A stretch of DNA of 64,000 nt from Bacteriovoracaceae bacterium (GTDB taxonomy: Bacteria > Bdellovibrionota > Bacteriovoracia > Bacteriovoracales > Bacteriovoracaceae). The notes below the pieces were generated by a model. It searched no databases, was not told the DNA's origin, and saw only the letters and a program-made list of their open reading frames with translations. The translations under genes and the position numbers were made by a program. Where the stretch lies: positions 1,696,001 to 1,760,000 of the forward strand of contig JBLWTJ010000001.1 in assembly GCA_048270185.1 (NCBI GenBank), written 5' to 3'. Within the stretch, counting starts at the first letter, position 1, and each line of letters starts with the position of its first letter. Below are positions 10,001 through 23,646 of this stretch, one piece after another.

Positions 10001-10735
10001 ACGTAGGTCTTCAAATACTTTATGAGCAACAACAGAGATTTCAGTACGTTTGATTTTATCTTTAAGCGTACGAGCTCTTTCTGCTTTCTCCGCTTGCTTT
10101 TGTAGAGACTTTAGATTTTTTTCAATTTCAATTGTAAGATCATTTAGACGGTTTAAGTTCTGCTCAGTGGCTTCGATTTTTCTCATCGACTCTTTTTTAC
10201 GAACTTTAAACTTTGTGATTCCTGCAACTTCTTCAATCATCGAGCGACGCTCAACAGGTTTAGCCTGAACAAGTCTGTTGATCTCACCTTGAGCAATGAT
10301 TGAATACGACTTTGCACCTGCACCAGTATCCATGAATACTTCTTGAATATCTTTTAGACGAGCTGGCTCACCATTAATACGATATTCAGTATCACCATTA
10401 CGATATAATTTTCTTGTGAGCTGAATCTCTGAAGGGTTTGCAACCTTTCCACCGATGTGAATATGCTTACCGTGAGTGTTTTCAAGAACGAGAGTCGCCT
10501 CGGCCCAAGCCGCTGGATTATATTTAGAAGAACCCGCAAAGATTAGATCCTTCATCGAGTTTCCTCTTAGGTGTTTTGCTGATTGCTCACCCATGATCCA
10601 AAATAAGGCATCTACGATATTAGATTTACCACAGCCGTTAGGCCCAACAATCCCAGTAATTCCGTCGTCAAAGTTAATAATGGTACGATCTTTAAAAGAT
10701 TTAAAGCCCTGGATAATTAGTCTTTTCAGTTGCAC
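7052..10735 (-). CDS. smc: Chromosome segregation ATPase SMC
   Basis: GFKSF, Walker A GPNGCGKSN, long coiled coils, MSGGEK signature, LLDEVDAPLD. Confidence 0.97.
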   Translation of the reverse strand: MQLKRLIIQGFKSFKDRTIINFDDGITGIVGPNGCGKSNIVDALFWIMGEQSAKHLRGNSMKDLIFAGSSKYNPAAWAEATLVLENTHGKHIHIGGKVANPSEIQLTRKLYRNGDTEYRINGEPARLKDIQEVFMDTGAGAKSYSIIAQGEINRLVQAKPVERRSMIEEVAGITKFKVRKKESMRKIEATEQNLNRLNDLTIEIEKNLKSLQKQAEKAERARTLKDKIKRTEISVVAHKVFEDLRELRDGGSDLTEKKMQLEQWSTTKDSLEISLEEERFEREEKTARIDELQKERNEVSNKLAAAEERLNALCKSLTDKEEQLEQRQKEIEELAQEIEERLLKKEEIETEINDVITSSKEDYDYEAASEKLESMKTELEDKQSQISELEEEFSIKKEELVKMEQQAFQNNSKLEEYAATLQDLATEIEAIEKQYSGVSTELAKERDEVMTAKNLVDELTEKEVSLKETVNELTIKDRDLESELKTLTKEQITKQSRLASLKEIQASLEGAKEGVSKFLSEVDSDKYTVLGNIIKCDDKYTNAVTALLGEFLESLVTSESDLSLLKNWVTENDESALEILLADKTADVISAEARERLSVKLGSELTTLSDIIELPEEYKSKLTPYLSSLFIVDQIDLDKVTSLESSISFGGICDLSGNIQIRNRQNATVLHVKGSQEQGQSAIERNNTIESLDTELVTLNEKVVELEESVNASNELLRAKINELEEARLNLSESRADYAAKNSALESKLASMESGNTRLDILKNRKDETSKLRLAILEKEESFNKDKQEVEEAISTIAERVQDFKDSYNEMNEVYEADREVYVSKQVEAKTFEQRVNSLRSQSEDIEKQIEKQNLRRETNTELITKLEEELENVQVEIETLENDNNEKADILASKDEVLSLMKDEFSELLLAMQEREDQVKELTKNINKTDKEITEKEVRLERCLNEEEENVRNIFEKYRVDLRESIGRYLEYGQDDFEKLNDISTMYFMETENGPKEIEKESFEFIRKYGQDLKDQGHRLKNYKSEFGRLGEINWQAIEDYDRQKLRYDFLKVQEVELRKSLEDLQAAIEHIDEKSRERFKVAFEEVDTRFRKVFPIIFGGGEARLEVVGDIDDPECGVDIIAKPPGKKMQNINLMSGGEKAMTAVSLIFSIFLVKPSPFCLLDEVDAPLDDANVGRFNELLREMSAESQFILITHNKKTMELNDTLYGVTMQEPGVSKAVSVQLQ

Positions 10736-10950
10736 TTTGATTCACTCCGTCAATTTATCTCTATAATGTGTGTTGTGTAGGCCTTTAATCTACCATTTTA
10801 AGCATCATATCGTACACTTTTAATATTTCAGTTGCGCTAAACTAAAAATGTAATATCAGTAACTTACAGACTCACAATCCTAACAAGAACTAACATACCA
10901 AATAACAAAGTATGTATTTCGTACTAAGACTTTATCATTCGATGAAATCT

Positions 10951-10958
10951 GCCGATAA
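10951..10958 (+). promoter_or_regulatory. Candidate sigma28 -10 element (GCCGATAA) for the HD-GYP gene
   Basis: Exact FliA -10 consensus 7 nt before ATG 10966; the -35 match is poor. Confidence 0.35.
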
Positions 10959-10965
10959 GACAAAA

Positions 10966-12099
10966 ATGGATAACAATTCAAAGAGCGTCTACTTCACAAT
11001 TGATTTTCACCTAGTGGTGCGAAATAAAGCACTGCCTTATAATATCTATATCAACTCTTCGACCATTAAGGGAAAAGATCACTATGTGAAAATAGTGAGA
11101 CCAGGTGAAACCCTTGATGATGCAGCTGTTGAAGATTTTAAAAAGTATCAAAGAATTCATGTTCTTGAATCTGAGCGTGGTCTTTATCTTCAATCGCTAG
11201 CAGAAGATGAAAGCTTTGACTCTCTTGATAAAGTTACGGCCATTAAAGACTCGGCCGTTAAGCACCTTGATGATATTTTTAATCCTGGTAAAGAATTTAA
11301 TACTGAAATTCTTGGAGAGGCCCTTGATGGTTGTCACGATTCAATGAAAGCGATGGTTGGTGTTATCAAAGATTATGATATCAACAGTCTGAAGAAATTA
11401 ATCGGTGAACTTTCTTTTCATGATTTTTACACATACGACCACTCGATAAATGTAAGTATGTATAGTGTTTTAATTCTAAAACAATATCGTCCTAAAGCTT
11501 CTGAAGCTGATCTTGTTGCTATCGGTCTAGGTGGACTTCTCCATGACTTAGGAAAAACAAAAGTCTCAACTGAGATCTTAAATAAAACAGGAAATCTCTC
11601 TGATGAAGAATTTGCTGAAATTAAGAAGCATCCTGAGTATGGTGTTGAATTATTTCGCGAGGCCAATCCAGACTTTCCGGGTCTAAAGAAAGAGTCCATT
11701 GAAAAAGTAATTATTGAACACCATGAAAATGTTGATGGCTCAGGTTATCCAAACGGTTTAAAGGGAGCTGATCACCATATGTTTTCGAAGGTCGTCTCAG
11801 TTGCTGACTTCTTTGATGCAATCACGACAAAGCGTTCATACTCACAGGCACTGCCTATTGAGGATGCTTTAGAAATTATGAAGAAAACTGTTGGGAAAAA
11901 AATAGATGGTGAAATTTTTGATTTCTTTGTAAAGAAAGTTTCAAAAGTTATCCTAACAGGTAAGACAATGGTTACTCTGCCCGATGACTTCAATACTGAA
12001 ATCGCTCATGCAGAGCTCCCAATTCAAAAGGTTCAACCTAAGAAGCTTGGCGAGAACTTTACAAAGGCCGAAGAAAACCCAAATAAAATTACAAAGTAA
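10966..12099 (+). CDS. HD-GYP domain cyclic-dinucleotide phosphodiesterase
   Basis: YTYDHS, LHDLGK, HHENVDGSGYP, VADFFDAITTKRSY; start uncertain (10912/10942/10966). Confidence 0.9.
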   Translation: MDNNSKSVYFTIDFHLVVRNKALPYNIYINSSTIKGKDHYVKIVRPGETLDDAAVEDFKKYQRIHVLESERGLYLQSLAEDESFDSLDKVTAIKDSAVKHLDDIFNPGKEFNTEILGEALDGCHDSMKAMVGVIKDYDINSLKKLIGELSFHDFYTYDHSINVSMYSVLILKQYRPKASEADLVAIGLGGLLHDLGKTKVSTEILNKTGNLSDEEFAEIKKHPEYGVELFREANPDFPGLKKESIEKVIIEHHENVDGSGYPNGLKGADHHMFSKVVSVADFFDAITTKRSYSQALPIEDALEIMKKTVGKKIDGEIFDFFVKKVSKVILTGKTMVTLPDDFNTEIAHAELPIQKVQPKKLGENFTKAEENPNKITK

Positions 12100-12690
12100 T
12101 CACACTAAGTAGATTGGGTATAGAGACGAAATTAAAAGTAGTGCCATGACGATATTAAAGATTCGTAGGCGTCTTTCATTTTCTAAAAATCCTTTAAGCT
12201 TAAGACCTGCAAAAACCCAAACAGTAATTGATGGCAAGTTCATTAAACTAAATGCCATAAGAATTGCAAGTAAGCTTAGAGTGTGTTCACCTGAATAAAT
12301 TGTTACTGCCGAAATGGCCATCGTCCAAGCTTTTGGATTTATCCACTGAAAAACAGCAGCTTCGACAAATGACATTGGCTTCTTGGCCTCTTGGTCTTGA
12401 GAATTAAATGTACTAAAGCCAATCTTAAAGGCAAGAACAAGAAGGTAACTTCCACACATCATCTGTAAAACTTTTTGAAGATTTGGATAGATCTTAAATA
12501 GGTCACTTGCTCCAAAACCAATAATGGCAACCATCAAGATAAAGCCAACATAAACCCCAAGCATATGAGGAATGGTTTTCTTAAATCCGTGGTTTGCTCC
12601 TGAGGTCATAAGAAGAATATTATTCGGACCAGGAGTGATTGATGAAACAAGGGCAAATGCGAATAGGGCGTATAGTGTTGTCGTGCTCAT
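12100..12690 (-). CDS. LysE/RhtB family amino-acid exporter
   Basis: SITPGPNN, FQWINPKAW, hydrophobic helices. Confidence 0.92.
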   Translation of the reverse strand: MSTTTLYALFAFALVSSITPGPNNILLMTSGANHGFKKTIPHMLGVYVGFILMVAIIGFGASDLFKIYPNLQKVLQMMCGSYLLVLAFKIGFSTFNSQDQEAKKPMSFVEAAVFQWINPKAWTMAISAVTIYSGEHTLSLLAILMAFSLMNLPSITVWVFAGLKLKGFLENERRLRIFNIVMALLLISSLYPIYLV

Positions 12691-12762
12691 AGGAGCAGTC
12701 TACATGATTTTGAAAATAGTTTATTGCAAAGAGTCGTTATCTGATGTTATATTTTGCAATAT

Positions 12763-13215
12763 ATGACGAAGATAGACTCAATTGACGAAAGAATATTGCA
12801 AGAATTGGAAAATAACGGAAGAATCAGTAATTCTGATTTAGCTGAGATTGTAGGACTTTCTCCTTCCGCATGCTTAAGGCGCGTGCAAGAACTTGAGAGG
12901 TCGAAGGTTATCACTGGCTACCGTGCAAGAATCAATCGTGCCAAACTAGGAACAACCTTTACTGCTTATATGACAGTTGGCCTTTCAAATCACACGAAGA
13001 AATCACAAAAAGATTTCGAAGCGGCCGTTGCGGATTCTCCAGAAGTTGTTGAATGTCACAACGTGACTGGTAGTTTTGAGTATATCCTGCGAATTGAGAC
13101 AACAGATCTAGCTTCGTATAAAATTTTTCACACAGAAGTTCTAGGTATTTTGCCACAAGTAAACTCCATCTCAACTTACGTTGTTATGGAATCTTCTAAA
13201 GACAAGCGTAAATAG
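12763..13215 (+). CDS. Lrp/AsnC family transcriptional regulator
   Basis: D.IDERIL.ELE.NGR.SN..LAE.VGLSPSACLRRV; divergent from the LysE gene. Confidence 0.95.
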   Translation: MTKIDSIDERILQELENNGRISNSDLAEIVGLSPSACLRRVQELERSKVITGYRARINRAKLGTTFTAYMTVGLSNHTKKSQKDFEAAVADSPEVVECHNVTGSFEYILRIETTDLASYKIFHTEVLGILPQVNSISTYVVMESSKDKRK

Positions 13216-13217
13216 GA

Positions 13218-13493
13218 TTACTTATAGAACTCAACGAAGAATTGAACCTCACCTAAAGGCTTTACGTGGTGTAAGACCTCTGGTTCAACAACACCGAATT
13301 TCTTCTCATTTAATTCAATCTCTTCTTGAACGCCCTCTTCAATTTTATAAAGGAGATTCCCCTTTATAATATTAATAAGCCCCCAACTTCCTTTCTTAGT
13401 TTTATGATTTTTAAGCAGGCCATTAGGAATAGTATCCTGATTGAAAATAGGTGTTTTCTTATATGCAGTAACATTGTCTGGTAGAACCTTCAT
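13218..13493 (-). CDS. DUF1971 (YeaR/TehB N-terminal-like cupin) protein
   Basis: YKKTPIF...IP.GLL..H.TK.G.WG...HHV.P...FFVEFY. Confidence 0.85.
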   Translation of the reverse strand: MKVLPDNVTAYKKTPIFNQDTIPNGLLKNHKTKKGSWGLINIIKGNLLYKIEEGVQEEIELNEKKFGVVEPEVLHHVKPLGEVQFFVEFYK

Positions 13494-13622
13494 ATATCCT
13501 CTTGATAAGAAATTAACGACTCTAACAACCTAATATTAGATTGTGATCTTATGATATCAAACAGAAATTTGAATTAGTAGTTAATTTGAGTATATGATCC
13601 TTAAACCTTTAGGGAGGCAAGT

Positions 13623-14471
13623 ATGAAGATTATCTTATTAGTGGTAGCACTTTTACCAATCTTAGCATTTTCAAAAACAACAAATCTTTCACAGAGCAAT
13701 CGACCGTCTCATTATTTCAAAAGAGAAAAAGCGATTTTAAATGTTGGCCTTGCCTACTACGGTGACTACTGGAAAGAGAATGATCTAAAACGAATCACTC
13801 CCATGTTAAAAGAAAGATTTGCCTTAGCAACTAATGAAGTACTTACTCTTAATATCGTTGCTATCGATGTCCTAAGCTATAAAACAAAATTTGACCCTGT
13901 CTTAATGAAGAAGACTTATCCACAAATTAAAGATGAAGCGCGACTGCAACGTGTTTACTACTATGAAACTTTAAAAGGAAATATTCTTTCTGAAGTTTAT
14001 GATGAATTTAAAAAAGCAAAACTTGGAAACTCTTATAAAAGTCTCGATGCACTTCTTGTTGTAACAGGTGCTCAATTTGATGGTCTAGGACTGGCCAACG
14101 GCCGTGTCGCTGTCACAGAGCAGCCACGAGAAATTGCTTGGGGACTACCTGACGGTGGTCGCACAGAAATCGTCAGTGATGAATCAATCGTCGATGAACT
14201 AATCCACGAACTTGGCCATATCATCTTCTTAGGTCACACTTCAACTCAATGTATGAAGCCAGACCTGACTCTTGAAGAGCGCAATCAATGTTGTGAAGCT
14301 TCCCCATCAAAGAACGATGTTATGAGCTATTGTCGCAATCGCAATGACGTCAATCACGGTGTCATCTTCGGTTTTGAATCATGTAATCGCGAAATGATCA
14401 ACGAACTCATCATTCCTGCCATGCTTAAAGGCAAGCGCTGGAACGTCAGCGGACGCCAAACCTGCAAGTAA
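13623..14471 (+). CDS. Secreted zinc metalloprotease (metzincin-like)
   Basis: Signal peptide; HELGHIIFLGH; Met-turn-like DVMSY; GGGAGG RBS. Confidence 0.7.
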   Translation: MKIILLVVALLPILAFSKTTNLSQSNRPSHYFKREKAILNVGLAYYGDYWKENDLKRITPMLKERFALATNEVLTLNIVAIDVLSYKTKFDPVLMKKTYPQIKDEARLQRVYYYETLKGNILSEVYDEFKKAKLGNSYKSLDALLVVTGAQFDGLGLANGRVAVTEQPREIAWGLPDGGRTEIVSDESIVDELIHELGHIIFLGHTSTQCMKPDLTLEERNQCCEASPSKNDVMSYCRNRNDVNHGVIFGFESCNREMINELIIPAMLKGKRWNVSGRQTCK

Positions 14472-14476
14472 GCAAA

Positions 14477-14612
14477 TGAAGAGTTAGCGAAGCGATACTC
14501 TTCAGACAATCTTCGAATTGTGCACGATGGTCGCAGCCACATCCTGCGGCCAAAAAGCAACGCTTTTTGACGCTGAGATGCTTAATTCCAAGAAATAAAA
14601 AAATAAGCGTCA
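14477..14612. repeat. Cluster of GC-rich inverted repeats (REP-like element, structured RNA or terminator)
   Basis: Hairpins at 14477-14504, 14506-14521, 14528-14552 and 14551-14569, plus TGACGCT/AGCGTCA (14568/14606). Confidence 0.55.
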
Positions 14613-14665
14613 GCGCCATTTTTTTATGACAGTTTTTATACGTGAAGTAAATGTCAGCTTATTTT

Positions 14666-14689
14666 AAAAAGAATGGTCGGAGCGAGAGG
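14666..14689. repeat. att core, distal copy (displaced 3' end of tRNA-Pro)
   Basis: AAAAAGAATGGTCGGAGCGAGAGG, identical to 23562-23585. Confidence 0.95.
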
Positions 14690-14779
14690 TTTCTACTACA
14701 AAAGTCGAAACTTACTATCCAACTGACTGAATTAACATTAATAACAAATAGTTATAAAGGTTTCCTAAGTTTTGGTATT

Positions 14780-14829
14780 TCACTTTTATTCATTTTATCT
14801 CACTACTTTTCACTGTATTGGCTGGGATT
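14780..14829. promoter_or_regulatory. att-arm repeats: four 10-bp-phased TCA(C/T)T units followed by GGCTGGGATT
   Basis: TCACT/TCATT at 14780, 14790, 14800, 14810; GGCTGGGATT at 14820 recurs at 23487. Confidence 0.55.
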
Positions 14830-15827
14830 TAGAACTCCCTAGCCCTTGCTTTTATAAGTGCAGGTGTAAAATCATGCTCATCAGTGTATGCCAAAAGTTT
14901 TTTCTTACCGTTCTTCTCACCAATTAATAATCTCTTAGTACCAGCAATACCTAAGCCAAGATTCTCACGAGGCAAGACATAGCCTCTATATATATTAACA
15001 CCATGAGCCTGACTTACAGAGGACTCCGAATGCCAATCAATTTTAAACTTTTTATCAGTAGCACCTCTTAAAGTAGGAAACGAGAGGGCTAAAAAACCAC
15101 AATAAGAGATTTGTTTCAAATCATCACAATTGCATTTCCTAATATCGCTTAAAAATTGTGGTATTACTTCGAAATTTGAAATTTTTGAAATATCTGATTC
15201 GTTCATTCCCTCAAAAAATGATTGTACAAAAGCAGAATATTTCAAACTTTCAAGACTACAATTTGAATAATTCTTTAGATAATCAAAAATTTCATCTTCA
15301 TTTTCCTTTAAAAACTTTTCAAGTACTTCTTGCTTTGGGCCAGAAGGAACAAAATTTAGAATATCAAGTTCTTTGCTACAATACAGCTTATCGTCCCCAC
15401 AAGTTGAACAATCATTTTTCAATAATCTTCGGTCTTCTATATCTACGACTATTGGAGACTTTCTAGTATAAAGTATATTTTGCAAAGCTAAGCTAACTGT
15501 AGTCAATCCAGCAGAAGTAGTGTGGCCATCAGGGAAACTGCTAAAATGTTTTTCAAGCTCTTCCTCGGGGCATAAGCTACTTTTTTTCATTGGCTTAAAA
15601 AGAATATTTGATCCCATTTTATTTACTGAGCTAACAAACACCTTGCCCTTTGCGTCACTTTGCAATATTGGATAAATTGAATACGGAACTAATATAATTA
15701 TAAAATGCTTCAGTTGAGTTGCAAGACTTTCTAGTTTGAATAAAAAATCCACGACATCACTAATATTAGTACGATATAGAACTAAATCTCTCTCAATGAA
15801 TGGGGAAATAAAGACTTCAAAACGCAC
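14829..15827 (-). CDS. Hypothetical protein; putative effector of the upstream ATPase, C-terminus possibly RelE-like RNase
   Basis: 332-aa ORF starting 7 nt after the ATPase stop; C-terminal F.V.PQF..DI...WH...IYR.YV...RL......LL.Y..EH pattern. Confidence 0.6.
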   Translation of the reverse strand: MRFEVFISPFIERDLVLYRTNISDVVDFLFKLESLATQLKHFIIILVPYSIYPILQSDAKGKVFVSSVNKMGSNILFKPMKKSSLCPEEELEKHFSSFPDGHTTSAGLTTVSLALQNILYTRKSPIVVDIEDRRLLKNDCSTCGDDKLYCSKELDILNFVPSGPKQEVLEKFLKENEDEIFDYLKNYSNCSLESLKYSAFVQSFFEGMNESDISKISNFEVIPQFLSDIRKCNCDDLKQISYCGFLALSFPTLRGATDKKFKIDWHSESSVSQAHGVNIYRGYVLPRENLGLGIAGTKRLLIGEKNGKKKLLAYTDEHDFTPALIKARAREF

Positions 15828-15834
15828 AACTAGA

Positions 15835-17325
15835 TTACACTTCTCCAGCTTCTATTTTTTCAAGTCGAAGCTTTGTTAGGTCATCTATTAGCTTATCTCT
15901 TTCATCCATAAAACCATCAGGAGGATTAATTATATATCCCATGTTGTCGTGTTCAATTTTTCGAGCAACAGCTTTTCCATCAATTCTCTCAACCCATAGC
16001 ATTTTTACTTCTTCAAATAGTTGAGGATATTTCACATTAAAATATACTAATTTACTCAATAAGCTTTCACTGTGAGTTTCGATTAGTACAACTTTTCCAA
16101 GTAAAGACATCTGCCCAAAAAAGTCAGCTAACTTAGACTGTGCACTTGGATGAAGGTGGATTTCAGGTTCATCAACAATACAAGTTTCAGACCTGTCAGA
16201 ACTAAGTACTCTGAAAATCACCGGTAAGATTTGACTTAAACCGTATCCCATATTGTTAATAGAAAGCTCTTTACCATCTAAAACTAATATAATTTCAGAA
16301 GTCAAACCTGATGCTATTGATCTGATATCAATCGTTTTTGCAATTTTAAAGAAGTTAACCCAATAATTTAAACTTTCCTCAAGTGTTTGCTGTACGATTT
16401 CATTTTTAGAAAAATCAAAATAACTATCTATTTTGTTATTTTTCTTCCTAATATAATCTTCTAGTGGATTATTAAATCCACCATCTGAATAGATACGATG
16501 AGGCTCGCCTCTAAATGGAGGAATGACAATGATTTTGTCTACTTCTATCTCAGGGATAAAATCAACATCAATACTATTATGAAGCTGAACATAGTCTCCA
16601 AATTTAGGCTCATTAATCTTTCTTAGATTATTAGCGACTACCCCTTTTTTAGTAAAAGCTTTTTTATATTCTTCACTTAAGCAGTCCTCAAGACTTTCTA
16701 TATTTAAATCAAAACTAAGAAGCATAAAATTTTTGAATTTTACATTTCTAACGTCCGAAAACTCAACAACACTACTGAATACACCGCTTGGCCTTACATT
16801 TTTTCCAGCTTTTGCTAATAAGTTAGTGATCATGTAATCAATAAACCTTCCCTCTGAGTAATCAGCAAAATGTACAAACTTTTCTGCTTTTATCTTCCAC
16901 TCACCTGTTGCAGTATTCATTTCTGCTTCAATTGAATGTTCTGGGCTTGCTCTATAAAACATCCTCTTCAGTAAAATATATTCAAAAGTATCTTTACCGT
17001 AATCTTCTCTATGTAGGAAAAATGTTAGCTCTGCATAACCTTGGTCAGATTCAAAAGATAAAAATACTTCCTCATCAGCTATATTGTTTAAAAGTTCCGA
17101 AGGCTTACCTATTTCTAAGTAAGGCCCATTCACTTTTAACATCGGGACTTCTGAGCCTAAATAGTTTTTAGTTTCATTATATGACTGAAGAATTATGAGT
17201 ATTGCTTGATATACAGAGCTCTTACCTGAACTGTTAACCCCTGACAGTAGAGTTAGCTTACTCAATTCTATATATTCAATATCTCCGAAAGACTTAAAGT
17301 TTTTTATTCCTATTTTTCTTAACAT
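15835..17325 (-). CDS. ABC-type ATPase (AAA_15/AAA_21-like) with C-terminal DUF3696-like tail; defence-associated family
   Basis: IKNFKSF, GVNSSGKS, NNMGYGLSQ, IVDEPEIHLHP, IETHSE, C-terminal G.I.NPPDGFMDE. Confidence 0.88.
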   Translation of the reverse strand: MLRKIGIKNFKSFGDIEYIELSKLTLLSGVNSSGKSSVYQAILIILQSYNETKNYLGSEVPMLKVNGPYLEIGKPSELLNNIADEEVFLSFESDQGYAELTFFLHREDYGKDTFEYILLKRMFYRASPEHSIEAEMNTATGEWKIKAEKFVHFADYSEGRFIDYMITNLLAKAGKNVRPSGVFSSVVEFSDVRNVKFKNFMLLSFDLNIESLEDCLSEEYKKAFTKKGVVANNLRKINEPKFGDYVQLHNSIDVDFIPEIEVDKIIVIPPFRGEPHRIYSDGGFNNPLEDYIRKKNNKIDSYFDFSKNEIVQQTLEESLNYWVNFFKIAKTIDIRSIASGLTSEIILVLDGKELSINNMGYGLSQILPVIFRVLSSDRSETCIVDEPEIHLHPSAQSKLADFFGQMSLLGKVVLIETHSESLLSKLVYFNVKYPQLFEEVKMLWVERIDGKAVARKIEHDNMGYIINPPDGFMDERDKLIDDLTKLRLEKIEAGEV

Positions 17326-17340
17326 TACATGTAGCCCAAT

Positions 17341-17369
17341 AAAAAAAGCCCTTTATGATAAAGGGCTTT
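17341..17369 (-). terminator. Intrinsic terminator or palindromic operator between the acidic peptide gene and the ATPase
   Basis: 12-bp perfect inverted repeat AAAGCCCTTTAT-g-ATAAAGGGCTTT ending in T7 on the minus strand. Confidence 0.8.
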
Positions 17370-17406
17370 ATATAATTCTTAATAATTTAGCTTAAATAGT
17401 TTATAG

Positions 17407-17523
17407 TTATTCGTCCACTTCGAGATCAGAAAATTCAGTTTCAGAGAATTCAAGATTTAGCTCACTTAAATCAAAATCAATCTCCATGATGTCAATTTGA
17501 TCGTAAATAGAGTTCACATTCAT
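17407..17523 (-). CDS. 38-aa highly acidic peptide absent from the ORF track (MNVNSIYDQIDIMEIDFDLSELNLEFSETEFSDLEVDE)
   Basis: Translated by hand; GGAGG 5 nt before the ATG; promoter upstream and terminator downstream; 13 D/E and no K/R/H. Confidence 0.75.
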   Translation of the reverse strand: MNVNSIYDQIDIMEIDFDLSELNLEFSETEFSDLEVDE

Positions 17524-17559
17524 ATATTCCTCCAAGAATTATTATATTAACCAATTATC

Positions 17560-17586
17560 TTATCGACATATTGGTAAAAACTTTTA
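17560..17586 (-). promoter_or_regulatory. Sigma28 (FliA)-type promoter
   Basis: TAAA-N15-GTCGATAA, one mismatch to TAAA-N15-GCCGATAA, 36 nt upstream of the peptide ATG. Confidence 0.7.
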
Positions 17587-17747
17587 GCCATAAATATACA
17601 CTTTGTAAATATATCTACGCTATACTTATTATAAATTTTACACCATTATATTCGAATTTCGAAGAAAAACAACTTTGCCTAGAGAAATCTTTATTTAATA
17701 AAACTTAATCACTGTTTTAACTATAAGCATAAGTTATTGATATTTAA

Positions 17748-17975
17748 CTAATCTCGAGTAAATAAGTCAGTAACCTCTACATCAAAGGCTACTGCTAGCC
17801 TATAAACAGACGAGAGGGAAGGACTATGGCCACCACTCTCTATTTTCTGATAATGCCTATAATTAAAGCCATACTGCACCATGTCCTCTTGTGTAAGACC
17901 TCTCGCCCTTCTAAGTTTCTTAATCTTAGAAGCTAATTTATAGATAAATTCTTCATAATTCTCACATGATGCCAT
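17748..17975 (-). CDS. XRE/Cro-C1 family HTH regulator (controller-protein size)
   Basis: IKKLRRARGLTQEDM...YQKIESG..SPSL...RLA.AFDV. Confidence 0.9.
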   Translation of the reverse strand: MASCENYEEFIYKLASKIKKLRRARGLTQEDMVQYGFNYRHYQKIESGGHSPSLSSVYRLAVAFDVEVTDLFTRD

Positions 17976-18008
17976 TCAAATATTATTGAATTCACGTACA
18001 AATTACAC

Positions 18009-18042
18009 CACGTACTATATAGTTCGTGTTCAGTGTTATAAT
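18009..18042 (+). promoter_or_regulatory. Palindromic operator plus extended -10 promoter of the nuclease gene
   Basis: CACGTACTATATAGTTCGTG (18009-18028, one mismatched pair); extra CACGTAC at 17993; TGTTATAAT at 18034-18042. Confidence 0.65.
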
Positions 18043-18062
18043 CACCTTAAGAGGTGAAATTT

Positions 18063-19661
18063 ATGAAATTTAATAACTATCTTTGGGATTTATATAAAAG
18101 CAATTCAAAGTCACTCGAGAATGATAAAGAGCTGCTATTTTCAAATGCGAGCTTTGAAGATGCGAATATCTACTTTACTTGCTTTGAAGCCGACTCTAAC
18201 TATGAGCCATTAAGTAAACCAAAAGAAATTGAGTGCCTAGTAGATTTAGTTCGAGTTATCAAAGATTTTGCAAAAGACGAAGAAGCTACAAGCATAGACG
18301 AAGCTGAAGAAATCTTCCGAGTTATTGCAGATGACAGGATTGACCTCTATTCAGGAGATGACTTCTATCTTCCTGATGAAGATAAAGATAAAAAATATAT
18401 TAGCTATTTGGGCGGTGGAATCGAGCATGAAAGATTCTATCAAACAGACATAATTTCTAATATTGAACATATAACACTAGGGCTACATCAAGCTTATCCG
18501 CAGTTCTTTTTTCCATATCTTTTTGTAAGAGAATTCAATCGACTTAATGAACTGGCCAATTTTTTTGATATCAAACTTCCATCGCTTCCAAAAAAGAGAC
18601 ATAAAAGAGACAGGGCATTCTACTATCTTGAAGTTAATCGAATATTTCAAGATCTAAGGGCCAAGCTAAAATTATCACCTACGGAGTTTAATTTCTTTAT
18701 ATATGACTTTGGATTAAAAAACTTAGAATCACTTAACACACATAGTAAAACCAAAGAAAATTTACCGAATCCTTCTAGGGCATGGCTCATTATTGGATAT
18801 GGTACAGGTATAGATGCTGAATTTTTAAATAATCTAAATGAAGAAACTGTAACACAATGGCAAGGAAAGATAGAAATGCGTGTAGGTGATATTGTACTTA
18901 TGTACCAACGTAATCCAAAAAGTAGCCTCCACTCTATTTGGCGAGTTGTTGAATCTGGCTTTAATGATCCATACGCATTCCACTATGCTCAAACAAAGAT
19001 TGGGTATCCAATTGAAATACCAAAGATTACATTTAAAGAAATAAGAGAAAATGAAATACTAGGCTTAATGCCAATAGTTAAGGCCTCATTTCAGGGTGCG
19101 ACAGGATCAACATTTTCTCTTAGCGAGTATAATGAAGTATTGAAATTAATTAATTCAAAAAATCCAAATATTAGAAACCTACCTCACTTACCAATTGTTG
19201 AAGAACTTAAGAATATAGAGATTTCTAACGAGAGAGATGTAGAAATAAACTTACTTGAGCCACTTCTTGAAAAGCTTGGTTTCGCGAATAATGAATGGAT
19301 CAGGCAATTTCCAGTAAGAATGGGAAGAGGTCAAAGAAACTATCCTGACTACGTTTATGGCGGTGACCCTACTCATGGCGAAGAAACAGCAAAGGCCTTA
19401 ATTGAATGTAAATATCACATAGATAGAGATGCAACTCTTACAGATACTTTTAAGCAAGCAAAATCTTACGCTCTGAGACTTAGAGCAAAGCTTTTTGCAT
19501 TAGCAGACAAGCAAGGTATTTGGATATTCAGATATGTTAATGATGACTTTAATCGAGATGTATTTGAATATATGAGCTGGGTTGAACTTCTTCATCATGA
19601 AAAACTACATGAGTTATCCTTGTTTATCGGAAAAGAGTTTATTGAGGATCATTGTCCTTAG
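18063..19661 (+). CDS. Putative restriction endonuclease: central EVE/PUA-like domain + C-terminal HsdR_N-like PD-(D/E)xK nuclease
   Basis: RAWLII...TQWQG...MRVGDIVLMYQ..P.S (EVE-like); ERDVE..LLEPLL..LG...YPDY...LIECKY...QAKSYA (nuclease). ATG 18063 follows GAGGTG. Confidence 0.75.
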   Translation: MKFNNYLWDLYKSNSKSLENDKELLFSNASFEDANIYFTCFEADSNYEPLSKPKEIECLVDLVRVIKDFAKDEEATSIDEAEEIFRVIADDRIDLYSGDDFYLPDEDKDKKYISYLGGGIEHERFYQTDIISNIEHITLGLHQAYPQFFFPYLFVREFNRLNELANFFDIKLPSLPKKRHKRDRAFYYLEVNRIFQDLRAKLKLSPTEFNFFIYDFGLKNLESLNTHSKTKENLPNPSRAWLIIGYGTGIDAEFLNNLNEETVTQWQGKIEMRVGDIVLMYQRNPKSSLHSIWRVVESGFNDPYAFHYAQTKIGYPIEIPKITFKEIRENEILGLMPIVKASFQGATGSTFSLSEYNEVLKLINSKNPNIRNLPHLPIVEELKNIEISNERDVEINLLEPLLEKLGFANNEWIRQFPVRMGRGQRNYPDYVYGGDPTHGEETAKALIECKYHIDRDATLTDTFKQAKSYALRLRAKLFALADKQGIWIFRYVNDDFNRDVFEYMSWVELLHHEKLHELSLFIGKEFIEDHCP

Positions 19662-20148
19662 TATCTACAAAATGAATGACAATTTCATCATTTTCCTCTT
19701 CTTCACTAATACTATCGAAAGATGAGCCATCACTCTTATCTCCCCATTTCTCAGGTGAGCGTCTACTTAATCGGTATGCTGATGCTTTCCAGTCAGGCTT
19801 CACAAGATATGAAGATACGACAGGATATCCCAACTCATCTAGTATTGGTTCGCCATTATCATCTAGCTTATACGACTTAGGTATTCCAAATGCCGCTTGG
19901 TTGATAACACCTAAGTGCCTTACTTCATCCTCTGCAATAGCAAGCCGTATCGCGTCCGATAATTTCACACATCTAGGGTTTGCATCTTCACTTTTAGCAT
20001 CTCTCAACCAACGATATAAAGTAGACTTACTAACTCCAACCAGTGCCGCGGCTGTTTCGATAAATGCTCCATGCTTTATTGCTGCATATATTTCAGAAAT
20101 CAGTTTATCTGTTAGTTTTGGTGATGAGTTCTTAGGGTATCTAGCCAT
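19639..20148 (-). CDS. Terminase small subunit-like HTH protein
   Basis: KLT...I..AI..G...ETAA..VGVSKSTLYRWL, then DWKASAYRLSRR.PEKWG and an acidic tail ending IVIHFVD; AGGAG RBS. Confidence 0.6.
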   Translation of the reverse strand: MARYPKNSSPKLTDKLISEIYAAIKHGAFIETAAALVGVSKSTLYRWLRDAKSEDANPRCVKLSDAIRLAIAEDEVRHLGVINQAAFGIPKSYKLDDNGEPILDELGYPVVSSYLVKPDWKASAYRLSRRSPEKWGDKSDGSSFDSISEEEENDEIVIHFVDTKDNDPQ

Positions 20149-20261
20149 TTATATTCTCCTATATAGAGATTCTAGCAATGAGCCTATTGCCTATAAATAC
20201 ACCATGTGTTTTAACTATTTACGAATATGTATAAGTATCTATAGAAATTGAGAATTAAATA

Positions 20262-20855
20262 ATGCAAGAAGAATCATCAATCGATCAAATACCTCGAAAA
20301 CTACATAAAGAACTCATGCGAGTACATAACACAGCTCTTCTTCTAAGATACGACAAAGAAATACTATACCTTGAGAATGAATTGGAAATATCAAACCAGC
20401 TTCTAAAGACAATAAATAAGTCTGTTGGTGAAAAGTCTAATGTAAACTTAGGTAAATCAATAGGAGATAGTCTAATTAGAGGGTCATACCTAAACACTAA
20501 CTTTAATAAAGTTCAAATTAAAAAGTCTATAGAACAGGATAAAAAAGAACTAAAATCTGGAATGAAGAACATAAAAGACTATATTGAAAAACTTCACACT
20601 GATAAAGAAGTTGGACTCTTTTATCAAGAAATTAAAAACTCTAAGACTAGTAAGCCAGTTGACTTACTCTGTACAAGAATTATATTCTTACTTTATCAAG
20701 AACTTAAAAGTGCAAACAAGGTCCATAGCTATCTTTTAAAACATACTGCTATACTTGAAGACTTATCCCCTATTCCTTCAATTAGATCCATTTCTAATCG
20801 AGTCAGAAACTATAAGAAAAAGTATCATACATATTTTGAATCAATACACGATTGA
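20262..20855 (+). CDS. Hypothetical protein, possibly a C-terminal helical DNA-binding domain
   Basis: 197-aa ORF inside the island; no family recognised. Confidence 0.6.
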   Translation: MQEESSIDQIPRKLHKELMRVHNTALLLRYDKEILYLENELEISNQLLKTINKSVGEKSNVNLGKSIGDSLIRGSYLNTNFNKVQIKKSIEQDKKELKSGMKNIKDYIEKLHTDKEVGLFYQEIKNSKTSKPVDLLCTRIIFLLYQELKSANKVHSYLLKHTAILEDLSPIPSIRSISNRVRNYKKKYHTYFESIHD

Positions 20856-20910
20856 CAATTTTTACACAAAATACTCATCAAACGTGAATATCCACTCTCC
20901 TTAATAAAAA

Positions 20911-20950
20911 GTTACTGTGAATACAGTTTTACATAATCGTAAACAGTAAC
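20911..20950. promoter_or_regulatory. Nested inverted repeats upstream of the xis-rep-xis-int operon
   Basis: GTTACTGT(20911)...ACAGTAAC(20943); inner ACTGT-gaat-ACAGT. Confidence 0.45.
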
Positions 20951-20974
20951 AACTATAAACAGGGAGAATAATCA

Positions 20975-21151
20975 GTGAAATCAAATGACGACTATCTAAT
21001 GACCACCAAAGAGCTTGCCAAGAAGCTAAGCGTAAAGGTTTCCTATATTAGATATCTGAAGATGAATAATCGAATTCCTTATATCAAAATTGGTAAACTG
21101 ATACGTTACTCAAGCAAAGAAATAGCCGTATGGCTCAATAACCAAAACTAG
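20975..21151 (+). CDS. 58-aa excisionase/AlpA-like HTH_17 protein, absent from the ORF track
   Basis: GTG start after GGGAG; MKSNDDYLMTTKELAKKLSVKVSYIRYLKMNNRIPYIKIGKLIRYSSKEIAVWLNNQN. Confidence 0.85.
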   Translation: MKSNDDYLMTTKELAKKLSVKVSYIRYLKMNNRIPYIKIGKLIRYSSKEIAVWLNNQN

Positions 21152-21207
21152 AAACTAAACAACATGCAAAAAAGAACAATGCTCGAATTTCGAGTAAAGG
21201 AGTCACT

Positions 21208-22155
21208 ATGTCAATTTCTCTAAAAAATATAAGAGAAAACAAAAAACAATCTGAAGATACAGTACTTCCCTTATTAAGTGGGAAAGTAGAATCAATTTGT
21301 ATAAATCCAAGTGAAATTAATACAGGAATAGATAGAATAGAAGGAAACCTAACCCATCTCAGTATAGCCGACATTAGAAAGCTTAGAGAAGTAGACAAGT
21401 GCCCTGTAGAGAAGCATATCAAAGGCCTAGGCTACATACGTTCGTTTAAATTAAAGTTAATCACACTTAATCTCTGCTATATGAAACAGACACATATATT
21501 GCCATATAAGTTTTACTTTAATCTTAATCACTCAAATGACATAAATATACAGTTACAAGATTTAATCAACCACTTCAAAACAGCCCTAGATAAATCAAGA
21601 ATTGTTAGAGTCGACTTGAATGCTGACTTTAAGTCGTCAATTCAAAACATGTTAATTAACCTACAGGTGAAAAATAAACAGATGTCAAAAGAATATAGGT
21701 GCACGCATAACAATATTGAAGGTAAATCTTGGGGAAAAGATGATGAAATCATAAGAATATATACATATGAAAATAATGAAGATGAGCCTATTACTCGTCT
21801 TGAAGTTCAAATCAGGAATAAGAAGCTCCCAAGAGATAGAAGTTTTTCAAATATACTTAAGTGGTTAAAGACTAATACTTTCTTTGAATCCATACAATTT
21901 TGGAACATCAATGGAATCAACAGTACTCCATTTAAAAAAATTAAACAGCTTGATTTTTATAGGTACTACGTAAAGTTTTTTAATCTTATAAATCTACAAA
22001 CACTTGGTTTTACAGAAGCAAGAAGTAGGTCAAAAGAACCAAAGAACTTCATGAGGAGTCTTCGGAGACACTTAAAAATAGAAAAATCTGACATCTCATT
22101 AATGAAAATATTTCGCCATCAGGTGACAAGTCAGCTGGGATCAAAGTATGAATAA
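21208..22155 (+). CDS. Rep_trans-like rolling-circle replication initiator/relaxase
   Basis: RVDLNAD, IRIY (candidate catalytic Tyr) and RLEVQIR occur in the order seen in pT181 RepC/MOBT proteins; AAGGAG RBS. Confidence 0.65.
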   Translation: MSISLKNIRENKKQSEDTVLPLLSGKVESICINPSEINTGIDRIEGNLTHLSIADIRKLREVDKCPVEKHIKGLGYIRSFKLKLITLNLCYMKQTHILPYKFYFNLNHSNDINIQLQDLINHFKTALDKSRIVRVDLNADFKSSIQNMLINLQVKNKQMSKEYRCTHNNIEGKSWGKDDEIIRIYTYENNEDEPITRLEVQIRNKKLPRDRSFSNILKWLKTNTFFESIQFWNINGINSTPFKKIKQLDFYRYYVKFFNLINLQTLGFTEARSRSKEPKNFMRSLRRHLKIEKSDISLMKIFRHQVTSQLGSKYE

Positions 22156-22336
22156 TCAGCTCTTTAACAAACGAATATGGAAAATAAAAGATGTAGCTGA
22201 GTATCTACAATGTTCAGTAGGAACTATCTACAACAAGACGAGTAAAGGTGAAATACCATTCTTTAAGAAAGGAAAATCTTTATACTTTTCCCCAGAAGAA
22301 ATTGAAAACTGGGTACAGGAGGGAAACCTTGAATAA
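22148..22336 (+). CDS. Excisionase-like HTH_17 protein
   Basis: WKIKDVAEYLQCSVGTIYN....EIPF.K.G..LYF..EEI..W. Confidence 0.9.
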   Translation: MNNQLFNKRIWKIKDVAEYLQCSVGTIYNKTSKGEIPFFKKGKSLYFSPEEIENWVQEGNLE

Positions 22337-23474
22337 GTATAAAAAACTCAAACATCATACTGGAATTAGAAAAGTATTATCTAGCGGTAACTATGAAGCT
22401 TCAAAAAAGATTAAAGGAAAGACTTACTCTCAAACCTTTAAGACTATAAGACAAGCTCAGCACTGGAGAAACACTTATAACCCTTTCTTAAGCTTTACAC
22501 CTGAGACTAACGGCATGAAGTTCAAGGAGCTATGGGAAAAATATGAGGAAGCCTACTTCCCAGAAATTGAAAAATCATCGCAAGGAATCAAGAAACAAAG
22601 GATTAAAGTTTTCAAACACCATTTAGATGATATCTCTGTATATGAAGTAACTCCTGAGTATATAGATCATATAGTTAAGCTAGAGAAAAAACTTGCTATC
22701 AGTAACCCAAATAGTAAAAGGTGTAACTTCAAAAGTAGTCTAGATGAAGTTAAGGCTGCATTTAACTGGTATCGTGAAAACTATGACTATCAATTCCATA
22801 GTCCAGTATTAAAAAGGCATTACACTATTGGAATTATCAGAAAAACTGAGAAAAGAGAGAGAATCTTAACTAAGGATCAAGTTGTTAGATTCTTTAAAGC
22901 GATAGACAATCCTTTATTTCAAGATTTTGCAATTATTCAATTCTTTTGTGCTTCGCGATTTGGAGAAGTAGCAGGAATACAAATAAAAAACATAGACTTT
23001 GAAACAGATTCTCTATTAATAAAGGAAGTTGTAGTTGAAGATCAAAGTAAAAAGTTTCTAGAACTAAAACCATACCCTAAAAATGGGCACGCTAGAGTTG
23101 TAGCAATTACTTCAGCTATTTTCAAAGCTGCTATTCAGAGAAGAATGGCTGATAGAGTAAAAGGATCAAACTACTTAATACATAGAAATGGCAATCCCAT
23201 GAGCTATCGTTCAGTTCAATTCCAATATAACAAAGCTTTAAAAAAGGCTGGATTACACCCAGAGTTTAGCTCTACACATATCTTAAGATATTCAATGGCT
23301 TCAGAGTCAAGACGTATAATGGGCTCTCTAGATGCTGCACAGGCTATTACTGGCCACAAGTCGATTAAGATGATTGAACACTATGCAAGAGTACCAACTA
23401 TGCTTCAAGGTGAGACTATTTCTAAAGTGAGTTTTGAAATTGAAAATACTTGGAAAAGCATACAAAAGCCTAAT
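22329..23474 (+). CDS. int: Tyrosine recombinase/integrase
   Basis: R (ASRFGE), K (PKNG), HILR, GHKS, HY catalytic set; likely TTG start at 22329 overlapping the xis stop; end placed at the TAA just after ...QKP/N (track gives 23477). Confidence 0.93.
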
Positions 23475-23561
23475 TAAGCTGGGAAAGGCTGGGATTATAA
23501 AATAAATATCAAAGGAGAATTTAGTAAACTATTAAAAACACTGAAGAAATTAAAGTTTATA

Positions 23562-23585
23562 AAAAAGAATGGTCGGAGCGAGAGG
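23562..23585. repeat. att core, tRNA-proximal copy
   Basis: Identical to 14666-14689; overlaps the tRNA 3' end. Confidence 0.95.
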
Positions 23586-23646
23586 ATTTGAACCTCCGAC
23601 CCCTTGCTCCCAAAGCAAGTGCGCTACCAAACTGCGCTACGCTCCG
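23570..23646 (-). tRNA. tRNA-Pro (anticodon TGG)
   Basis: CGGAGCG...CGCTCCG-ACCA acceptor stem; anticodon arm CTTGC-TTTGGGA-GCAAG; GGTTCAAATCC T-arm; 77 nt. Confidence 0.98.

Follow-up and report, generated by a model that had tools for sequence, protein, structure and literature searches.

In Menshen, as described by Li et al., the effector NsnC joins an inactive PIN domain to a nuclease domain, most often of the BECR fold with a His-Arg-His triad, and the DUF3696 region of the ATPase NsnB binds NsnC in AlphaFold 3 models (PMC12065111). A preprint (10.64898/2026.08.28.747851) disputes the inactivity of NsnC-type PIN domains. Among type III toxin-antitoxin (TA) and related RNA-antitoxin anti-phage loci, AvcID and ToxIN are activated by transcription shut-off (PMC10511110), and AbiF is accompanied by an upstream RNA (PMC12373285). 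How pairs of an ATP-binding cassette (ABC) ATPase and a nuclease avoid self-killing and sense infection is understood for few systems. Here we describe a locus in a 64,000-nucleotide stretch of the genome of a Bacteriovoracaceae bacterium (contig JBLWTJ010000001.1, positions 1,696,001 to 1,760,000; hereafter the window), where a two-gene operon encoding an NsnB-like ATPase and an NsnC-like effector is preceded by a leader containing a short open reading frame (ORF) for an acidic micropeptide. This ORF occupies the gene position taken by NsnA in Menshen.

The module lies on the minus strand. It opens with a candidate FliA (sigma28)-type promoter, TAAA-N15-GTCGATAA (17586-17560), predicted from its motif, followed by a Shine-Dalgarno (SD) site, GGAGG (17533-17529), and the ATG-initiated micropeptide ORF (17523-17407). 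The 38-residue product, MNVNSIYDQIDIMEIDFDLSELNLEFSETEFSDLEVDE, contains 13 Asp or Glu residues and no Lys, Arg or His. A hairpin of 11 pairs followed by a T-run (17369-17340), resembling an intrinsic terminator, ends 14 nt before the start of the ATPase gene (17325-15835, 496 residues). The effector gene (15827-14829, 332 residues) comes last, 7 nt after the ATPase ORF. Every part of this layout had been described in the initial annotation, and all of it was found in place.

The ATPase is of the OLD type and carries a C-terminal DUF3696 domain. It matched the Pfam families AAA_15 (6e-28), AAA_21 and DUF3696 above cut-off, and of the 120 PADLOC models that matched, NsnB was the best by a wide margin (7e-56, the next at 2e-32). 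A PADLOC model labelled HEC-03B matches the C-terminal third of the protein (2e-32), and the nearest PADLOC profiles all belong to defence proteins. The Walker A sequence (GxxxxGKS), the GxG signature, the Walker B motif (DE) and the switch His are intact in the window and nearly invariant across 53 aligned rows. The protein belongs to a distinct subfamily, with 56 matches listed at E ≤8e-46, mostly full length and 29-40% identical, after which the values drop to 2.5e-37. By their labels, one cluster member comes from Candidatus Parcubacteria and another ATPase from Oligoflexales. Plasmid and phage collections contained, among the matches listed, distant ATPases only (≤35% identity).

For the effector, Pfam, PADLOC and NCBIfam gave no matching family, and the PADLOC NsnC profile matched none of the six effector-family members scanned. 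The Atlas pointed it to YoeB-labelled clusters (score 0.91-0.92, with YoeB on 15% and 60% of the members), at a level of recognition below the reliable one. Earlier word-index searches had retrieved the effector itself only, or three proteins when a profile was used, and a full HMMER search gave 82 matches at E ≤0.001. We combined 74 rows of that list (query included) with three loci into a 77-row alignment, leaving out short fragments, one outlier of 2193 residues and duplicates. It shows C86, C150, H266, R299 and H318 as invariant, with near-invariance at C140, C143, D264 and R281. PADLOC 2023 NsnC models leave unrecognised an effector family of roughly 80 members.

An AlphaFold model of the effector built from seven rows reached a mean pLDDT of 65, with residues 221-332 mostly at 80-92 and residues 1-170 mostly at 35-65; a single-sequence model (pLDDT 39) was set aside. 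Structure comparison with this model returned 21 rows at Z ≥5.1, of which 18 were RelE/YoeB/YafQ/HigB/ParE-type entries or Cami1, aligned over model residues ~207-332. The best match to the C-terminal ~110 residues had a Z of 6.7 and a root-mean-square deviation of 3.2 over 84 aligned residues, and the matches include 2kc8, in which a C-terminal peptide of RelB is in complex with RelE. The C-terminal domain of the effector is therefore predicted to adopt the RelE/YoeB (BECR) RNase fold. Foldseek gave nothing at E ≤0.001, and sequence searches of the PDB with effector profiles gave nothing significant. The last 110 residues have an isoelectric point of 8.6-9.5 in seven of seven rows, a basic value expected of any RNase. 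The N-terminal alpha/beta domain, which falls in the low-pLDDT region, drew weak Foldseek rows for PIN domains (E 0.5-1.8) along with generic alpha/beta rows; no invariant acidic residue was seen there, the most conserved being E12 (79%). This half also holds the near-invariant C86, C140, C143 and C150, which the accessible text of PMC12065111 does not mention for NsnC and which suggest a zinc site.

We consider the pair NsnB/NsnC-like because a DUF3696 ATPase and a BECR effector with a His-Arg-His triad match the description of Menshen. Judged by sequence and predicted structure, it is the NsnB plus NsnC part of Menshen and not Menshen proper, since the DUF262 sensor NsnA is missing. The initial annotation had proposed a new defence module with an effector of unknown type. 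The pair is not wholly new and the effector now has a predicted RelE/BECR-fold domain, whereas the leader remains distinctive. The description of a defence-type ABC-ATPase/nuclease pair lacking a TOPRIM, HNH, reverse transcriptase or DUF262 partner was borne out by Pfam, PADLOC and PF03235 searches. No PF03235 (DUF262) match was found in the host genome (95.9% complete) or in three genomes of relatives (G332, G546 and G736); a fourth relative, G051, has one match, on a different contig from its module.

The pair is rare among the genomes searched, which comprised 238 of the host's class and 390 of the class of B. bacteriovorus (628 together). The ATPase profile matched in 2/238 and 3/390 of them and the effector profile in 2/201 and 3/390, in the same five genomes, where the two genes always adjoin. 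Consecutive accessions, coordinates or contigs of equal length point to six further ATPase-effector pairs. Two other classes of the phylum, represented by 127 and 14 genomes, gave no match, nor did 20 probe genomes, and scans of viral sequences with the ATPase or a five-row effector alignment gave nothing that was confirmed. Scans of metagenome and genome collections, made with over-general patterns, gave among the matches listed one locus within the subfamily (L091) and, put to use as controls, 157 distant ones. The comparison below rests on the window and four other Bdellovibrionota loci (L171, L172, L174 and L091), whose ATPases are 32-40% identical; L091 belongs to the complete genome of B. 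bacteriovorus strain kdesi. The five loci fall on two separate branches of the ATPase tree, L172 standing apart from the other four.

In all five, the gene upstream of the ATPase is a short ORF and not NsnA. Furthermore, the full leader layout is present in each: a FliA-type -10 box, a ribosome site of the GGAG type, an ORF (23-37 codons in the relatives), a hairpin, the ATPase and the effector. A CCGAT box precedes the short ORF by 22-27 nt in the four relatives and the corresponding distance in the window is 37 nt, while the stop codon of the ORF lies 63-90 nt from the ATPase start throughout. The loci of the relatives contain 18 genes whose upstream DNA is free; an SD-led ORF stands before the four ATPases and before none of the 14 others. 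In the controls, the full pattern occurred in 0/56 and 0/35 distant ATPases, and a version of it that ignores the promoter in 2/56. This comparison shows the FliA-type micropeptide leader to be a genuinely conserved feature, its function being a prediction.

The sequence of the leader is not conserved in the same way. Rfam gave no match over the window leader at E up to 1, the leader DNA found only short matches of 23-50 nt in 8/200 other genomes, and a conserved non-coding RNA was rejected on these two grounds; the predicted leader folds also differ among the five loci. Of the five, the window, L091 and L172 show a hairpin with a U-run. The other two contain no long U-run: L171 forms a hairpin of 14 pairs plus another that covers the ATPase ATG, and in L174 a hairpin extends over the SD.

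The promoter candidate was assessed against what is known of FliA, the attack-phase sigma factor of B. bacteriovorus, where Karunker et al. mapped TTAAG-N16-CCGATA in 92 of 140 attack-phase promoters (PMC3627812). The attack-phase role of FliA in B. bacteriovorus makes the link to the host's developmental state drawn in the initial annotation plausible. The host genome encodes FliA, above the TIGR02479 cut-off. Upstream of host genes, CCGATA on the sense strand is enriched 2.5-fold (0.38 vs 0.15 per kb) with an upstream TAA/AAA bias, and this promoter class therefore exists in the host. The genome-wide enrichment of CCGATA with the upstream TAA/AAA element indicates a broad FliA-type regulon, as in B. 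bacteriovorus. The -10 element of the window is TCGATA, which is not enriched upstream of host genes (0.37 vs 0.44 per kb), and its -35 region ranks among the best-scoring 3.4% of the [CT]CGATA sites that the largest contig contains. With the same matrix, trained on the genome of the window's host, the -35 region of L172 falls in the top 2.2% and those of the other three loci at 13-53%. From these data, control of the leader by FliA is likely.

We next asked how often such a leader arises by chance in the host genome. Of the 590 genes with at least 180 nt of free upstream DNA, one shows the promoter-SD-ORF-gap pattern, and this is the ATPase of the window itself; 17 of the 590 show the pattern once the promoter is disregarded. 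Short FliA-driven attack-phase RNAs are known from B. bacteriovorus (PMC3627812), and the ORF could accordingly be an independent attack-phase small gene or small RNA with the operon merely downstream. We regard this as very improbable, as a pattern found at 1/590 host genes nevertheless stands at the ATPase in 5/5 loci, spread over three families and two types of tRNA insertion.

The peptides themselves vary widely. That of L171 has 37 residues with 10 Asp or Glu and no Lys or Arg, that of L172 has 35 residues with 12 acidic and 3 basic, that of L174 is proline-rich (24 residues, 5 acidic, 2 basic), and that of L091 is neutral (23 residues, 4 acidic, 4 Lys). Three of the five are thus strongly acidic (27-34% Asp or Glu), one mildly so and one neutral, none being net basic, against a background of 0.6%: only 5 of 828 SD-led ORFs of 20-50 codons in the host genome are at least as acidic as the 38-residue product, vs 3 of 4286 ORFs from shuffled sequence. 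The strong acidity of three peptides suggests selection on the product. The expectation of the initial annotation that homologues would have a small upstream ORF was borne out in 4/4 relatives, each with a short ORF behind a FliA-type box, not all of them acidic. The window micropeptide has no Pfam or PADLOC match. Its membership of a paralogous family was rejected, there being no paralogue in the host genome (best other tblastn E 0.12), and so was the idea of a ribosomally synthesised and post-translationally modified peptide precursor, no modifying enzyme having been recognised among the genes of the surrounding element.

The position of the peptide ORF, where Menshen carries NsnA, raises the possibility that the peptide serves the ATPase as a sensor or ligand, either Ocr-like or as a bait replacing NsnA. 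It would bind the nucleic-acid surface of the ATPase, and its loss, cleavage or displacement by a phage protein would release the effector. The DNA mimic Ocr does trigger PARIS and Gabija (10.1101/2024.01.29.577857). However, the acidic residues show no conserved spacing, one peptide is neutral and one further member of the subfamily, L178, has none, which makes this quite unlikely. The Ocr-like DNA mimicry entertained in the initial annotation is likewise left without direct support, as the peptides share no sequence and differ in acidity.

Our preferred account, which we put forward tentatively, is that of a Menshen-derived abortive-infection ATPase-RNase pair braked by an excess of a short-lived peptide until host expression stops. 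FliA would transcribe the leader in attack-phase cells, as the motif and the work on B. bacteriovorus (PMC3627812) lead us to expect, and most transcripts would be terminated, or silenced at the level of translation, by the predicted hairpin ahead of the ATPase. The peptide would then be more abundant than the ATPase and the effector, in the way that type III TA loci make more antitoxin than toxin. By analogy with the Menshen models (PMC12065111), the ATPase likely holds the effector via DUF3696, and the acidic, probably disordered peptide may cover the basic RNase domain. When a phage shuts off host transcription, or when FliA drops on prey entry, decay of the peptide would leave the complex armed or active, to cut RNA and abort the infection. 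A labile brake in excess is favoured because the acidity of three of the five peptides lies above background, the SD sites are strong and the RNase domain is basic; the idea of activation by shut-off is borrowed from the AvcID, ToxIN and AbiF loci.

Several observations weigh against this account. Peptides of 23-38 residues that share no motif, one of them neutral (L091) and one proline-rich (L174), are hard to square with a single binding site. A clear hairpin with a U-run is seen in only three of the five loci, the -35 region scores well in only two, and the box lies within 260 nt of only one of seven flagellin genes. The -10 pattern and the distance limits were fixed after sight of the five loci, which share ancestry. 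L178, met after the test was fixed, has neither an SD-led short ORF nor a CGAT box in the 330 nt upstream. It is nested in the ATPase subfamily, and the AT-rich element that carries it encodes two serine recombinases; the contig stops within the ATPase, so that the partner gene is cut off. Distant DUF3696-ATPase/BECR-like pairs have neither NsnA nor the leader, and the pair can thus exist without the peptide. The Z values of the fold assignment are middling (<8) and derive from a model with a mean pLDDT of 65; the RelE-fold call was kept despite this because one superfamily over one domain dominates the top rows. Finally, a FliA-only promoter combined with a peptide-only brake would free the toxin at each entry into growth phase, and a second restraint, by the ATPase, must therefore be assumed. 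The leader looks like a feature of the predator-hosted copies and not of the whole subfamily, and the peptide is not the obligatory third part that the initial annotation had made of it.

Much of this evidence bears on the main alternative, that the leader acts in cis only. The pair would be self-sufficient, and the short ORF and hairpin would form an attenuator or damper on a strong FliA promoter, with read-through rising on disturbed translation or in the presence of a phage antiterminator; the sequence of the peptide would be immaterial beyond its harmlessness. Such a damper is favoured by the lack of any motif common to the peptides, by the neutral peptide of L091 and by L178, and also by a layout and spacing (63-90 nt) conserved where peptide sequence is not, by the hairpins over the ATPase start or SD in L171 and L174, and by the distant pairs that lack a peptide. 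G/A-rich acidic codons may moreover be favoured at the RNA level. On the other hand, the predicted minimum-energy folds contain no antiterminator helix between the ORF and the 5' arm of the hairpin, no shared run of regulatory codons was seen, the ORF ends ~25-45 nt before the terminator-like hairpin, and peptide acidity in 3/5 loci is far above background. We judge a purely cis-acting leader somewhat unlikely.

Whichever reading of the peptide holds, an anti-phage role of the protein pair is quite probable. Going beyond the labile-brake account, predators may have swapped the Menshen sensor for a fast-evolving micropeptide clock, in which FliA loads the complex together with excess inhibitor and decay on shut-off or on the switch to prey arms the nuclease; this bolder version is doubtful. 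If true, it would constitute an anti-phage system timed by a developmental sigma factor, with a peptide antitoxin unconstrained in sequence. A natural NsnA-less version with a peptide of 23-38 residues offers a minimal, clonable test of the purpose of NsnA and of phage sensing by the ATPase alone, and the copy in B. bacteriovorus kdesi makes immunity versus the attack/growth switch testable in the model genus. Because peptides of this kind fall below gene-calling limits and share no sequence, other systems regarded as 'two-gene' may have similar third components that escape notice.

The module is cargo of an integrated element, as the initial annotation had it. The element spans 8.9 kb and is bounded by a 27-nt direct repeat (96% identical) that duplicates the 3' end of tRNA-Pro. 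The left attachment-site repeat is at 14666-14692 and the right one at 23562-23588, overlapping the 3' end of tRNA-Pro(TGG) (23570-23646, minus strand). Its GC content is 0.328, vs 0.366 for the genome. It encodes a tyrosine integrase (22248-23477, plus strand; Pfam Phage_integrase 8.5e-17, phrog_1), a small helix-turn-helix (HTH)-like, excisionase-like ORF judged by eye (20975-21151) and a gene resembling the terminase small subunit, terS (19639-20148, minus strand; phrog_4102 5.7e-19), which points to a satellite resembling phage-inducible chromosomal islands (PICIs). No capsid or portal match was found among the element ORFs scanned. By its gene content (integrase, attachment repeats at a tRNA, HTH and terS, with no capsid match), the element is a PICI-like satellite.

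Upstream of the promoter lies a 75-residue regulator of the HTH_3 family (17748-17975, minus strand; Pfam), which was rejected as a part of the module since it does not adjoin it in four relatives. A 535-residue cargo protein (18054-19661, plus strand) matched EVE and HSDR_N (restriction-nuclease-like) weakly and phrog_37753, of unknown function, strongly; it is a candidate for a modification-dependent restriction enzyme carried by this element. Two element ORFs of 315 and 197 residues matched no Pfam, NCBIfam or PHROG family. A weak Rfam HTH-XRE match just upstream of the integrase (22183-22261, plus strand; 30.5 bits vs a gathering score of 49.8) probably reflects a small HTH coding region. 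Sites of the sigma-70 type occur in the element at chance level (40 vs 38.3 expected).

Four of the five loci adjoin a tRNA gene. At L175, L176 and L091 the neighbouring gene is tRNA-Gln or tRNA-Pro, with no attachment repeat found in these stretches, and L176 is another integrase/terS element. The host's family has two PICI-like elements (window 14666-23588; L176 ~8456-16700) at different tRNA-Pro genes; both have an integrase, a small HTH gene and terS but no capsid match, and in both the module occupies the end opposite the integrase. The module of G332 (L175, 11323-17908) stands beside tRNA-Gln with no integrase in the 20 kb examined, and its neighbouring cargo looks defence-like and, judged by eye, includes a TIR-like nucleotide-binding protein, a MazG-like protein and a helicase/nuclease-like ORF.

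Carriage on integrated elements, together with the RelE fold and an antitoxin-first layout, would also suit a TA-like addiction module that stabilises the PICI-like element, loss of which would let the peptide decay and the RNase poison the cell. Such a module has no need of a 496-residue ABC ATPase whose nearest profiles are all defence proteins, and its presence in 5 of 628 genomes of two classes is sparse; we hold addiction to be improbable.

The absence of NsnA extends to more distant relatives. We collected 38 distant DUF3696-ATPase loci whose partners were picked by eye as BECR-like, 30 of them with at least 1.5 kb of upstream sequence. A DGxQR motif, which is a motif test and not a profile, was found in any upstream ORF of 2/30, in neither case in the adjacent gene on the same strand. 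NsnA-less DUF3696/BECR-like pairs are, on this count, not rare, and the set of Li et al. would omit them because its loci were collected starting from DUF262. The effector profile matched the distant partners weakly (E 0.021 with 7 rows; 3e-4 and a probability of 40% with 77 rows). Many distant DUF3696 ATPases of 600-650 residues are followed by a protein of ~345 residues ending in RRDIDxExHLHYW...HND, with no DUF262 gene; examples among L012-L169 are L016, L019, L026, L082, L104 and L106, several directly following a gene for 900-970 residues. These ~345-residue partners go unrecognised by PADLOC 2023, and the distant pairs are possibly a widespread, uncatalogued two-gene or embedded system.

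Neither the module nor a micropeptide in the place of NsnA was found described in the literature, where subscription papers were thinly covered; NsnA-less pairs may already be catalogued in the survey of ABC-ATPase conflict systems by Krishnan et al. (2020). In coupling an ATPase gene to a nuclease gene on a mobile element, the module resembles PARIS (AriAB), Septu, WonAB (PMC12137116), HEC-03 (10.1101/2024.01.29.577857) and PD-T4-4, and it likely shares with them a sensor-effector logic that ends in a block of translation. Its effector is of the RelE/BECR kind, unlike the TOPRIM, HNH, PD-(D/E)xK or VapC-like PIN partners of two-gene ATPase/nuclease pairs, and gave no Pfam, PADLOC or NCBIfam match to TOPRIM, HNH or PD-(D/E)xK, the partners in PARIS, Septu and WonAB. 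For HEC-03, the HEC-03B model matches the ATPase, the partner matches no HEC-03 model, and the accessible text describes no BECR end. A micropeptide leader is likewise not described for such pairs in the accessible portions of the literature covered.

Type III TA and related RNA-antitoxin loci such as ToxIN, AvcID (PMC10511110) and AbiF/RCd22 (PMC12373285) are similar in that a short upstream element, typically a terminator and then the toxin follow one another. In the present module, by contrast, that element is an ORF that looks translated, with a strong SD and no conserved RNA motif found, and an ATPase is interposed. With the type II systems RelBE and YefM-YoeB the module shares a toxin domain of the RelE fold; it differs from them in that this domain is fused behind a 210-residue domain, no DNA-binding part is recognisable in the peptide, and a hairpin and the ATPase gene separate the peptide and effector genes. 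With Menshen, the module shares an ABC ATPase with a DUF3696 tail, followed by a two-domain effector of ~330 residues that ends in a BECR fold with conserved His, Arg and His; H266, R299 and H318 resemble the His-Arg-His triad of the NsnC PB-BECR1 (PMC12065111). The module is set apart from Menshen by a Walker B of DE, vs EN in the NsnB of S. silvestris, by an effector that has a four-Cys motif and no NsnC profile match, and by the short ORF and hairpin that stand where NsnA (ParB-DUF262 plus ParBDB) would be, NsnA being absent beside all five loci.

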